From the NCBI RefSeq assembly GCF_054482595.1, contig NZ_CM137008.1: a stretch of DNA of 64,000 nucleotides. One strand, 5' to 3'. Shown here piece after piece: positions 5,493-8,898 of the stretch (its first letter is position 1; the number at the start of each line of letters is the position of its first letter). The notes below the pieces were generated by a model. That model made no database searches and had not been told where the DNA came from. It was given only the letters and a program-made list of their open reading frames with translations. The position numbers were made by a program, and so were the translations under genes.

Positions 5493-6698
5493 ATGGCGGT
5501 TGATATTAAAGATGTCGAACAGGTCGCGCAGGAGCTGCAGCAGAAGTTTGACGACTTCAAAGCAAAGAACGACAAGCGCGTGGATGCGATTGAGCAGGAA
5601 AAAGGCAAGCTTGCCGGGCAGGTGGAAACCCTGAACGGGAAACTCAGCGAGCTGGAAAATCTCAAAAGCGACCTTGAAAAAGAGCTGCTTGAGCTGAAAC
5701 GTCCGGCAGGTGGTGCGCAAAATAAACTGGCCACCGAGCATAAAGAAGCGTTTGTGGGCTTCCTGCGTAAAGGCCGTGAAGACGGTCTGCGCGATCTGGA
5801 GCGTAAGGCATTGCAGGTGGGCACCGATGAAGACGGTGGCTACGCCGTGCCGGAAGCGCTGGATCGCAACATTCTCAACCTGCTGAAAGATGAAGTGGTG
5901 ATGCGTCAGGAAGCCACGGTGATCACCGTTGGCGGTTCCGACTACAAAAAACTGGTGAATCTGGGCGGCACGGCTTCCGGATGGGTGGGGGAAACGGATA
6001 CGCGATCCCAGACTGCCACCTCCAGACTGGAGCTGATTGAACCTCTCATGGGGGAAATCTACGGCAACCCGCAGGCTACCCAGAAAATGCTGGACGATGC
6101 CTTCTTCAACGTGGAAGCATGGATCAACAGCGAGCTGGCAACCGAATTTGCCGAACAGGAAGAAATTGCCTTTACCACCGGCGATGGTACCAAGAAGCCG
6201 AAAGGGTTCCTGGCGTATGAATCCACGGATGAAACCGATAAGGTCCGGGCGTTCGGCAAACTTCAGCATATTGTATCCGGCGACGCGACTGCGGTGACCG
6301 CTGATGCCATTATCAAACTGATTTACACGCTGCGAAAGGCACACCGCACCGGCGCGAAGTTCATGATGAACAACAACAGCCTGTTTGCCATCCGTTTGCT
6401 GAAAGACACCGAGGGTAACTATCTGTGGCGTCCGGGGCTGGAACTGGGGCAGCCGTCCTCTCTGGCGGGTTACGGTATCGCTGAAAACGAACAGATGCCG
6501 GATATCGCCGCTGATGCGAAAGCCATTGCATTTGGTAACTTCAAACGGGGTTACACCATCGTTGACCGTATCGGCACCCGCATTCTGCGTGACCCGTACA
6601 CCAATAAACCGTTTGTCGGTTTTTATACCACCAAGCGCACCGGCGGGATGCTGGTCGATTCGCAGGCCATCAAACTGCTGAAGATTGCAGCGGCGTAA
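5493..6698 (+). CDS. Major capsid protein (HK97 fold)
   Basis: 401 aa ORF with aggag SD, N-terminal coiled-coil-like delta domain (EQVAQELQQKFDDFKAKNDKRV...) typical of HK97-type capsid precursors. Confidence 0.9.
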   Translation: MAVDIKDVEQVAQELQQKFDDFKAKNDKRVDAIEQEKGKLAGQVETLNGKLSELENLKSDLEKELLELKRPAGGAQNKLATEHKEAFVGFLRKGREDGLRDLERKALQVGTDEDGGYAVPEALDRNILNLLKDEVVMRQEATVITVGGSDYKKLVNLGGTASGWVGETDTRSQTATSRLELIEPLMGEIYGNPQATQKMLDDAFFNVEAWINSELATEFAEQEEIAFTTGDGTKKPKGFLAYESTDETDKVRAFGKLQHIVSGDATAVTADAIIKLIYTLRKAHRTGAKFMMNNNSLFAIRLLKDTEGNYLWRPGLELGQPSSLAGYGIAENEQMPDIAADAKAIAFGNFKRGYTIVDRIGTRILRDPYTNKPFVGFYTTKRTGGMLVDSQAIKLLKIAAA

Positions 6699-6701
6699 TC
6701 A

Positions 6702-6732
6702 TTCAGGGGCGCGGAACCGCGCCCCCTGTTCT
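6702..6732 (+). terminator. Hairpin after major capsid gene
   Basis: ggggcgcgg aacc gcgcccc followed by tgttct. Confidence 0.35.
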
Positions 6733-6747
6733 GACGGGTGAAGAATC

Positions 6748-6948
6748 ATGATCCTGAAACAAGATCTGAAATGGTCACCGGACGGTATGCGTGTTGAGGT
6801 CATTCGGGCCGGTGAGTATGACGACGGGGCGCTGCCTGCCCGGGTGCAGGAGATTGCACTTCAGGCCGGGTTAGCAGAGCGCGGAACCAGTGCAAAAAGC
6901 AGTAAAGCGGCAAAAGAGAAAAAAGCCACGACCAGTAAAGAGGGCTGA
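6748..6948 (+). CDS. Small hypothetical head-module protein
   Basis: 66 aa ORF in gene-dense head module, Lys-rich C-terminus. Confidence 0.4.
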   Translation: MILKQDLKWSPDGMRVEVIRAGEYDDGALPARVQEIALQAGLAERGTSAKSSKAAKEKKATTSKEG

Positions 6949-6950
6949 GT

Positions 6951-7274
6951 ATGCTTCTGACAATAGAAGAGATTAAAGCCCAACTCCGGCTGGATGAGGA
7001 TTTCGATACTGATGACCGTCATCTGCAACTGCTGGCCTGTGCGGCGCAAAAGCGGACGGAAACGTATCTGAACCGGAAGCTCTATGCACCGGATGAAACC
7101 ATTCCGGACAGCGATCCGGACGGACTACACCTGCCGGATGATATTCGTCTGGGGATGCTGATGCTTATCAGCCATTTTTACGAAAACCGCTCGTCGGTTA
7201 CGGAAGTGGAGAAACTCGACATGCCGCAGAGTTTTGGCTGGCTTGTCAGCCCGTACAGGTACTTTCCGCAATGA
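6951..7274 (+). CDS. Head-tail connector protein (gp6-like)
   Basis: 107 aa ORF after capsid gene; size, acidic character and position. Confidence 0.65.
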   Translation: MLLTIEEIKAQLRLDEDFDTDDRHLQLLACAAQKRTETYLNRKLYAPDETIPDSDPDGLHLPDDIRLGMLMLISHFYENRSSVTEVEKLDMPQSFGWLVSPYRYFPQ

Positions 7275-7681
7275 AAATTCGTCAGGCGCAGACCAGCGCA
7301 ACCTACATCCTGCCGGACCCCGGCGAACTGAATAAACGCGTCCTGATCCGCCAGCGGGTGGATATGCCCGCGGATAACTTTGGCGTGGAGCCTCAATACC
7401 CGGTTGCGTTCCGGGCATGGGCGAAGGTTATCCAGACCAGTGCCACCACCTGGCAGGAAACCGCGCAGACCGGAGACGCCATCACCCATTACATCACCAT
7501 TCGCTACCGCCGGGGGATCACTGCTGATTATGAGGTGGTCTGTGGTGACAGTGTGTACCGCGTGAAACGTCAGCGTGATCTGAACGGAGCGCGGCGCTTT
7601 CTGCTGCTGGAGTGTACGGAGCTGGGCGAATTTACGCAGAGTCACGGAGGCAACAATGGCGACTTCCTTTTTGCACGTTGA
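7271..7681 (+). CDS. Head closure / head-tail adaptor protein
   Basis: 136 aa ORF translationally coupled to upstream gene. Confidence 0.6.
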   Translation: MKIRQAQTSATYILPDPGELNKRVLIRQRVDMPADNFGVEPQYPVAFRAWAKVIQTSATTWQETAQTGDAITHYITIRYRRGITADYEVVCGDSVYRVKRQRDLNGARRFLLLECTELGEFTQSHGGNNGDFLFAR

Positions 7682-8162
7682 TTTTCAGCAGCCCGCGGAG
7701 ATGCGCTTTAACCGCGCCCGTGTCCGGCGGGCGTTTGTCACGATTGGTCAGCGTCATATGCGTGATGCCCGTCGGCTGGTGATGCGCCGTGTGCGGTCGG
7801 CACCGGGTGAAAACCCCGGTTATCAGACCGGACGCCTGGCTCGTTCGATTGGTTACATGGTACCCAGAGCCAGTAAACATCGCCCTGGTTTTATGGCACG
7901 TATAGCCCCTAACCAGCGTAATGGAGAGGGAAACCGCCGTATCACCGGTGATTTTTATCCGGCTTTTTTGTTCTATGGCGTGAGGCGAGGGGCAAAGCGT
8001 CGTCGCAGCCATCATCGTGGTGCATCCGGTGGCAGCGGCTGGCGACTGGCTCCACGTAATAACTTCATGGTGGAAACGCTTGAAAAGAACCGCAGTTGGA
8101 CACGCTATTTTCTGGCGCGGGAATTGCGTAAATCACTGAAGCCGGAGCGACGACACAGATGA
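7656..8162 (+). CDS. HK97 gp10-like head-tail joining protein
   Basis: 168 aa basic ORF, ggagg SD, position in connector block. Confidence 0.55.
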   Translation: MATSFLHVDFQQPAEMRFNRARVRRAFVTIGQRHMRDARRLVMRRVRSAPGENPGYQTGRLARSIGYMVPRASKHRPGFMARIAPNQRNGEGNRRITGDFYPAFLFYGVRRGAKRRRSHHRGASGGSGWRLAPRNNFMVETLEKNRSWTRYFLARELRKSLKPERRHR

Positions 8163-8719
8163 AACTGACGCCTGTTATTGCTGCACTGCGTGCCCGCTGT
8201 CCGTATTTTGAAAACCGGGTTGCAGGCGCGGCCCAGTTCAAAAATCTGCCGGAGGTCGGAAAGCTGAAACTCCCGGCGGCATATGTTGTACCGGGTGATG
8301 ATTCTCCGGGAGAAAACAAAAGCCAGACCGACTACTGGCAGGAGCTGAAAGAGGGTTTCTCCGTGGTTGTCATACTGAGTAACGGGCGTGATGAGCGCGG
8401 TCAGTTTGCCTCGTATGATGTGGTGGACGATGTCCGGCAGATGCTCTTTAAGGCTCTGCTGGGCTGGAACCCGGAGGCGTGCGGTAACCCGATTACCTAT
8501 GACGGCGGCACGCTGCTGGATCTGAATCGTCATGAGCTGATTTATCAGTTCGATTTTTCGGTCATCAGCGAGCTGACTGAAGACGATACCCGCCAGCAGG
8601 ATGATCTGAACAGTCTGGATGAACTGCAAACGCTGGCGATTGATGTTGATTATCTCGATCCCGGTAACGGGCCTGACGGCGATATCGAACATCACACCGA
8701 AATAACCCTTCCTTCCTGA
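8159..8719 (+). CDS. Tail completion/terminator-like protein (Mu gp37-like)
   Basis: 186 aa ORF immediately upstream of sheath gene. Confidence 0.5.
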   Translation: MKLTPVIAALRARCPYFENRVAGAAQFKNLPEVGKLKLPAAYVVPGDDSPGENKSQTDYWQELKEGFSVVVILSNGRDERGQFASYDVVDDVRQMLFKALLGWNPEACGNPITYDGGTLLDLNRHELIYQFDFSVISELTEDDTRQQDDLNSLDELQTLAIDVDYLDPGNGPDGDIEHHTEITLPS

Positions 8720-8727
8720 GAATCTTC

Positions 8728-8898
8728 ATGTTTGTGAAACCTGTTAAAGGGCGGTCAGTGCCTGACCCTGCCCGCGGTGACCTTTTGCCCACCGAAGGGC
8801 GAAATGTTGACGAGAACAACTACTGGCTGCGCCGTGAAGCAGCGGGTGATATCCGGCGCGTGAATAAAAAGGTGAACACCGATGACGATAAGCTTTAA
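8728..8898 (+). CDS. Small conserved-looking protein preceding the sheath gene (56 aa)
   Basis: Not in ORF track (below 60 aa); read by eye: MFVKPVKGRSVPDPARGDLLPTEGRNVDENNYWLRREAAGDIRRVNKKVNTDDDKL, ends overlapping sheath start. Confidence 0.4.
   Translation: MFVKPVKGRSVPDPARGDLLPTEGRNVDENNYWLRREAAGDIRRVNKKVNTDDDKL

Follow-up and report, generated by a model that had tools for sequence, protein, structure and literature searches.

The window analysed here, 64,000 nucleotides (nt) of contig NZ_CM137008.1 (NCBI RefSeq assembly GCF_054482595.1), carries between the genes for a tail terminator and a tail sheath a gene of 56 codons on the plus strand (8728..8898, stop codon included), whose product is a DUF2635 / PHROG 208 / Mu gp38-like protein. 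This small open reading frame (ORF) is a real, conserved and translated gene, as documented by family matches, a RefSeq coding sequence (CDS) and a low ratio of nonsynonymous to synonymous substitution rates (dN/dS). Both the gene and its family are already known from Pfam, PHROGs and RefSeq and therefore no new gene has been discovered; for a genome scan, this is a real gene that was correctly called and had been concealed by a 60-codon cut-off. As to its function, we propose that the small protein is an abundant accessory factor of tail assembly that the finished virion either does not retain or holds in disordered form, a reading to which we give a probability of roughly 45%.

The reading frame and its family

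The ORF starts with an ATG at 8728 and ends with a TAA at 8896-8898, and its product has a mass of 6.4 kDa. The terminator gene (8159..8719) ends 8 nt 5′ of this ATG, and the sheath gene starts with an ATG at 8882, the two ends of small gene and sheath gene overlapping by 17 nt. An earlier note, made from the letters of the window, had described a 56-codon ORF at 8728-8898 that fills the gap between the 8159..8719 gene and the sheath gene and overlaps the sheath start; translation reproduced the coordinates and the quoted peptide exactly, and the 8-nt gap and the 17-nt overlap bear out the rest of the description. The note was also right that the ORF was unlisted, since the ORF track has a cut-off of 60 codons; the gene itself is intact and annotated in RefSeq. 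The length of such an ORF is uninformative by itself, as 77 ORFs of at least 30 amino acids (aa) overlap positions 6000-13000 when all six frames are considered. Given that ORFs of this size are common by chance, the status of the gene rests on homology, purifying selection and the RefSeq CDS.

Two candidate ribosome-binding sites can be read on the plus strand. A weak Shine-Dalgarno-like GAGAA (8718..8722) stands 5 nt before the ATG of the small gene and overlaps the stop codon of the terminator gene, an arrangement from which we infer that the small gene may be translationally coupled to the terminator gene. The candidate for the sheath gene, a Shine-Dalgarno-like AAGGTG (8869..8874), falls within the final part of the small gene and is separated from the sheath ATG by 7 nt.

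The small protein matches Pfam DUF2635 (PF10948) with 58.8 bits (E 4.2e-16; gathering threshold 26.6 bits), residues 3-47 aligning to positions 1-45 of the 46 in the model, and PHROG 208, a family of unknown function, with E 2.7e-26 (residues 1-55 on profile positions 4-59 of 64). No NCBIfam model was matched, and the Pfam search returned neither a terminator family (PF23840, Phage_Mu_Gp37 or T4 gp15-like, at E up to 0.1) nor a tail-assembly-chaperone family. The closest named relative is orf10 of phage SfV (AAL89419), which is 98.2% identical across all 56 residues, the single difference being A22 in SfV and T22 in the window, and whose GenBank note reads ‘similar to phage Mu GP38’. Together with its copies in SfI, SfII, SfIV and E. 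coli prophages (WP_000497757.1), SfV orf10 represents the same gene, with the same neighbours, the same length and the same 17-nt overlap with the sheath gene. Sb12 of phage ST64B is 85% identical to the small protein, and Mu gp38 is 42.3% identical (tblastn E 8e-7).

A 171-nt CDS identical to the small gene has been annotated in E. coli 50EVA by the Prokaryotic Genome Annotation Pipeline (PGAP) as WP_000497757.1, ‘DUF2635 domain-containing protein’. Two E. coli chromosomes carry the 1-kb region around the gene with 100% identity, and the region occurs in 1079 of the 5426 complete genomes of this species. The window is thus an SfV-like prophage of E. coli, as follows from the near-identity to SfV orf10, the 1-kb identity to E. 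coli chromosomes and the PGAP-annotated CDS.

Annotation of the gene in public records is uneven, and it has been left out, with its ORF intact, of the records of phiP27 (AJ298298 / NC_003356), SfIV (KC814930 / NC_022749) and VIT_AJPSC (OR799564). The unannotated phiP27 gene (locus L010:3001-3162) reads MFVKPLKGRSVPDPARGDLLPSDGRNVEESSYWLRRIAAGDVVRVKQDKAKES and overlaps the sheath start through an ATGA.

Selection and predicted fold

The core of the gene is under strong purifying selection. For a core of 42 codons, dN/dS is 0.045 against ST64B and 0.032 against Edwardsiella phage EPP-1 (dS above 1), and it ranges from 0.15 to 0.26 against more distant enterobacterial phages. The family is large, a profile search of 1.84 billion representative proteins yielding 4282 clusters at 50% identity (E up to 1e-3). 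Among the best 150 of these clusters no fused domain was found: all members are 49-137 aa long, stand alone and have the domain at the N-terminus or close to it.

Two parts can be told apart in the protein. Codons 1-45 (8728..8862) encode a conserved folded core, as delimited by an alignment of 150 sequences and by an AlphaFold2 model, and codons 46-56 (8863..8895) a variable C-terminal tail that is predicted to be disordered. In the model the predicted local distance difference test (pLDDT) score exceeds 90 for 45 residues and drops to 47-78 in the tail; across the 150 sequences, the tails of relatives run to 7-91 residues, abound in A, K, P and E and show no consistent charge. The predicted core is of the alpha/beta type, with short beta strands, a helix at residues 31-39 and a last strand at 42-45. 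P14, G24 and W33 are invariant in the alignment, and P5, L20, R35, R36, G40, D41 and position 42 are nearly so, the last being V in at least 90% of the 150 sequences and I in the window protein.

No relative was found in the PDB by sequence, with either the single protein or the 150-sequence profile, and no solved structure is a significant relative. All Foldseek matches of the model have E above 0.01 and identities of 5-23%; they comprise the N-domain of ribosomal protein L9, the GINS B-domain, the N-domain of B. subtilis YqbF and the C-domain of lambda gpFI, each of which resembles the small protein in predicted shape with no relation in sequence.

Two further ideas about the protein were rejected. 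A basic core that pairs electrostatically with an acidic terminator C-terminus is not borne out by the family, whose mean net core charge is +0.9 (standard deviation 2.5). A frameshift fusion to the terminator or the sheath is ruled out by the homologues, which have their own Met-Phe-Val-Lys-Pro start, by the junction with the sheath gene, which varies from a 17-nt overlap to a 58-nt gap, and by the Pseudomonas homologues, which are separate proteins of 60 aa.

Position in the tail module

The first 14 annotated loci inspected, from phages and tailocins, all show the order terminator, small gene, sheath. The more extended order of terminator, small gene, sheath, tube, chaperone and tape measure is shared by Mu, SfV, ST64B, phiP27, AH07, YeP1 and EPP-1, as well as by phiNP, BZS1, PG1, phiAP1, PY223 and BgVeeders33, and next to this conserved tail order stand head modules of three types (HK97-like, lambda E/D-like and Mu T-like). 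In a set of 80 IMG/VR loci for which sheath similarity (63-99% identity) had been the sole criterion of choice, 79 could be assessed, the remaining one lacking upstream DNA, and all 79 have a DUF2635 ORF whose end coincides with the sheath start or falls just inside it. Such numbers, together with SfV orf10 and Mu gp38, uphold the claim of the earlier note that small genes at the pre-sheath position are conserved in Mu-like tail modules; the note had staked the claim on homologues at the syntenic position in related phages, and homologues were found there.

The spacing of the genes is tight as a rule. At the junction of terminator and small gene, 16 of the 18 loci listed fall between a 14-nt overlap and a 12-nt gap, the outliers being KS10 (17-nt overlap) and PPF1 (27-nt gap); on the sheath side, the small gene stands 43-58 nt from the sheath gene in TJ1 and KS10. 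Even where sheaths are only 27-30% identical, as in PPF1, RR1-A, 7-7-1, TJ1 and KS10, a small gene still occupies the same position. PPF1_12 and RR1-A_00010 match PHROG 208 at about 1e-7 and 7-7-1 gp125 at 6e-7, and the C-terminal half of the Curvibacter TJ1 protein aligns to the profile with an hhalign probability of 85% (E 6.5e-6); KS10 gp36 has no significant similarity to the DUF2635 profile.

The TJ1 protein (L099:2218-2442) has a low-complexity N-terminal extension, with the DUF2635-like motif at its C-terminal end, which is the reverse of the usual order of core and then tail. At the same position, gp36 of Burkholderia phage KS10 (L095:2188-2466) also carries a low-complexity N-terminal extension, and its match to the motif is not significant.

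In myophage XM1, according to the paper on it, the terminator is gp5 and the sheath gp6. This consecutive numbering suggests that the small gene is confined to tails of the Mu/SfV lineage.

Tailocins and virions

The gene is linked to the tail and not to the head, because it occurs together with three types of head module and also in tailocin clusters that have no head at all. One such headless cluster is that of P. fluorescens Q8r1-96 (EU982300), which is devoid of head and connector genes and whose structural module opens with Orf9 (PF23840, E 8e-29) and Orf10 (DUF2635, E 1e-18), followed by the sheath. Likewise, in the supplementary tables of Carim et al. 2021 (PMC8319346), 12 of 12 Pseudomonas strains with an Rp4 tailocin cluster have the consecutive orthologue groups OG18 (terminator, 584 bp), OG19 (182 bp, an ‘SfV’ hypothetical) and OG20 (sheath), and in the upstream rows for one of these clusters, that of Pse01, OG18 comes directly 3′ of the holin. 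Since these particles never attach to a head or contain DNA, the fact that they keep the gene speaks against its product helping to join head and tail or to handle DNA. The terminator orthologue of the Pse11 cluster (Pseudo11_contig_1_496) is listed there with 350 bp and not 584 bp (PMC8319346 Table S2).

The same study provides proteomes of tailocin samples that had been induced with mitomycin, precipitated with 30% ammonium sulfate and analysed by multidimensional protein identification technology (MudPIT; PMC8319346). In Pse04 the DUF2635 homologue, OG19, reached a coverage of 93.3% with 69 spectra and a normalized spectral abundance factor (NSAF) of 0.026, compared with 79.4%, 152 spectra and 0.018 for the terminator, 68.1%, 1115 spectra and 0.051 for the sheath, 56.5%, 40 spectra and 0.008 for the tube, and 32.7%, 233 spectra and 0.054 for the chaperone-like OG22. 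In Pse05 the corresponding values were 88.3%, 38 spectra and 0.0106 for OG19, 78.9%, 68 spectra and 0.0059 for the terminator, 80.1%, 1638 spectra and 0.055 for the sheath, and 86.1%, 37 spectra and 0.0054 for the tube. The homologue of Pse06 was probably detected too, its locus tag occurring a third time in the portion of the supplementary file consulted (PMC8319346); that of Pse11, whose tag occurs only twice in this portion, may have gone undetected in its sample.

The DUF2635 homologue is thus produced in large amounts and found in the same fraction as tail particles. These samples are crude, however, with hundreds of host proteins as well as the abundant chaperone-like protein (PMC8319346), whose very abundance means that such samples carry assembly factors that are not part of the virion. 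OG22 (Pseudo4_contig_3_1018) has the highest NSAF of all Rp4 cluster proteins in Pse04, exceeding that of the sheath (PMC8319346 Table S4); with OG22 above the sheath and the tube far below it, spectral-count ratios are poor guides to the stoichiometry of the particle.

Purified virions contrast with the tailocin preparations on this point. In the cryo-electron microscopy (cryo-EM) structure of Mu at 3.4-3.8 A, gp37 was modelled as capping tube and sheath, its C-terminal hairpin closing off the sheath whether extended or contracted, and gp38 was not resolved (PMC11915804). Of the 24 proteins in the published virion proteome of phage 7-7-1, which include gp124, gp126, gp127 and a peptide as small as 3.2 kDa, none is gp125. 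The literature search returned no published structure of an SfV-like tail or an Rp4 tailocin, and no functional study of DUF2635, Mup38, Mu gp38 or the tailocin homologues; within the library searched, neither DUF2635 nor Mup38 is named in any paper.

Proposed role and alternatives

The reading that we prefer, an assembly factor that does not stay in the virion, would work as follows. The small protein would be made from the late tail operon together with terminator and sheath, would accumulate to molar levels about as high as those of the terminator or higher, and would do its work as the tube-sheath polymer grows and receives its cap; at the head-proximal end it might, for instance, handle the subunits of the sheath or the hexamer of the terminator. 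It would then leave the particle, as tail assembly chaperones do, and would be no ordered component of the virion; this accessory role would be specific to contractile tails of the Mu/SfV type. The assembly role, the binding partner and the departure from the particle are all things that we infer and that may hold.

A bolder and tentative extension of this proposal is that DUF2635 might be an unrecognised, near-universal assembly component of Mu/SfV-type tails and of their tailocin derivatives in Pseudomonas, Rp4 and R-syringacin, acting as a small removable cap or chaperone at the terminator end of free tails that would be lost or displaced when the head joins. A cap that is displaced at head joining would explain both the abundance of the homologue in tailocin preparations and its invisibility in Mu and 7-7-1 virions.

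The main rival, possible in our view though we would not bet on it, is a stable structural cap or collar at the head-proximal end of the tail, bound to the terminator or to the last sheath ring. The Mu record AF083977.1 names Mu_38 a ‘putative sheath terminator protein’, but the label was given with no evidence, and in the cryo-EM structure it is the gp37 hairpin that sits on the sheath in both states, with gp38 not seen (PMC11915804). The tight packing of the small gene against the terminator gene would suit a cap, as would an NSAF 1.5-1.8 times that of the terminator in the tailocin preparations, which is compatible with a similar copy number, and the precipitation of a small soluble protein at 30% ammonium sulfate suggests that it binds to large particles; co-fractionation in preparations as crude as these, however, does not prove incorporation. 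In a variant of the same explanation the protein occupies the head-joining face of free tails, is displaced by the head and persists only on tailocins and free tails, which fits the absence from the Mu virion, the absence from the 7-7-1 virion and the presence in headless particles alike.

A regulatory device is very unlikely. The small gene could be a coupling ORF that sets the step in output from the terminator (6 copies per tail) to the sheath (about 180), or its product could be a small nucleic-acid-binding protein, with an L9 N-domain-like fold and the conserved Arg-Arg, that tunes the translation of late tail genes. Yet the amino-acid sequence itself is under strong purifying selection, conservation over 4282 clusters would be needless for a mere coupling ORF, and the distances to the sheath gene in TJ1 and KS10 speak against coupling; moreover, the L9-like fold matches are not significant, and accumulation at the level of a structural protein is unusual for a regulator. 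It is chiefly the selection on the peptide, together with its abundance, that makes either regulatory role improbable. Finally, an ORF present by chance in the spacer that separates two real genes, an idea that could draw on the many ORFs of similar size in all six frames, the weak Shine-Dalgarno-like sequence and the phiP27 and SfIV records that leave the gene out, is refuted by the Pfam and PHROG matches with their thousands of homologous clusters, by low dN/dS (0.03-0.2) at saturating synonymous divergence and by peptides that cover 88-93% of the Pseudomonas homologues in two proteomes. The rest of the probability is reserved for roles other than those named here.

Comparison with known tail proteins

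Mu gp38 (Mup38, AAF01116; also FluMu gp38) has a homologous core in the same place, between K/gp37 and L/gp39, and shares with the window protein the design of a core of about 45 residues followed by a variable tail. It differs in being 67 aa long, with a longer tail that is first acidic and then basic, and in its junctions, overlapping gene K by 14 nt and gene L by 4 nt.

The mode of action proposed above resembles that of the tail assembly chaperones (lambda gpG/GT, P2 gpE/E′, Mu gp41; Phage_TAC_7), small and abundant products of the tail operon that are required while the tail is assembled and are missing from the virion; a tail assembly chaperone and the DUF2635 homologue also co-fractionate alike with crude tailocin preparations. 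However, these chaperones are unrelated to the small protein in sequence or fold, the window has a separate chaperone gene (10734..11003), and chaperone genes lie between tube and tape measure and act on the tape measure, whereas the small gene lies between terminator and sheath. The terminators (Mu gp37, T4 gp15 and gp3, XM1 gp5) are encoded by the adjacent gene, and the label in the Mu record implies the same end of the tail. They are, by contrast, hexamer-forming proteins of 160-270 residues whose C-terminus augments the beta-sheet of the sheath, and the folded part of the small protein comprises 45 residues, its predicted fold being unrelated to theirs.

The very large DUF2635 family keeps to a single fixed place in every Mu-type contractile tail, and its members are made in large amounts. 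Tailocins that carry a DUF2635 homologue are under development as precision antibacterials, and a requirement for the protein would matter for their engineering or heterologous production.

Neighbouring genes

The genes around the small gene form a head-to-tail series. The major capsid protein (5493..6698, by its RefSeq name) is followed directly 3′ by a gene for a 66-aa protein (6748..6948) that belongs to PHROG 1020 (unknown function) and stands at the position of ST64B Sb7. This protein also has a C-terminal tail rich in K, A, E and S, and it was rejected as a DUF2635 paralogue (hhalign E 0.42). Between its gene and the terminator gene lie, in this order, genes for a head-tail adaptor, a head-closure protein and a tail-completion/Neck1 protein.

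On the plus strand, the sheath gene (8882..10378) encodes a Mu gpL-like protein of 498 aa with Pfam sheath domains and a match to PHROG 165 at E 3e-233. It is followed 3′ by the tube gene, the tail assembly chaperone gene (PF10109, E 2e-16, with a frameshift site) and an ORF of 610 aa (11145..12977) at the tape-measure position of related phage records. A slippery T_TTT_TTC is found at 10985-10991, just 5′ of the chaperone stop codon, and the -1 frame (10970-11152) is open to 11152, overlapping the start of the 610-aa ORF at 11145. From the sequence, this frame looks like the usual programmed frameshift product of the gpG/GT or E/E′ type, and a product of that kind does not appear as a separate ORF on a simple track.

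The terminator gene, on the same strand, encodes a Mu gp37/K-like protein of 186 aa (PF23840, E 4e-26; RefSeq ‘phage tail terminator protein’). It matches PHROG 209 at E 3e-62, and the label of PHROG 209 is ‘portal protein’, a name also carried in RefSeq phage records by Mu gp37 (NC_000929), D108 gp37, SfMu and KS10 gp35. For these proteins the label is wrong, as PF23840 and the cryo-EM structure of Mu identify them as tail terminators.
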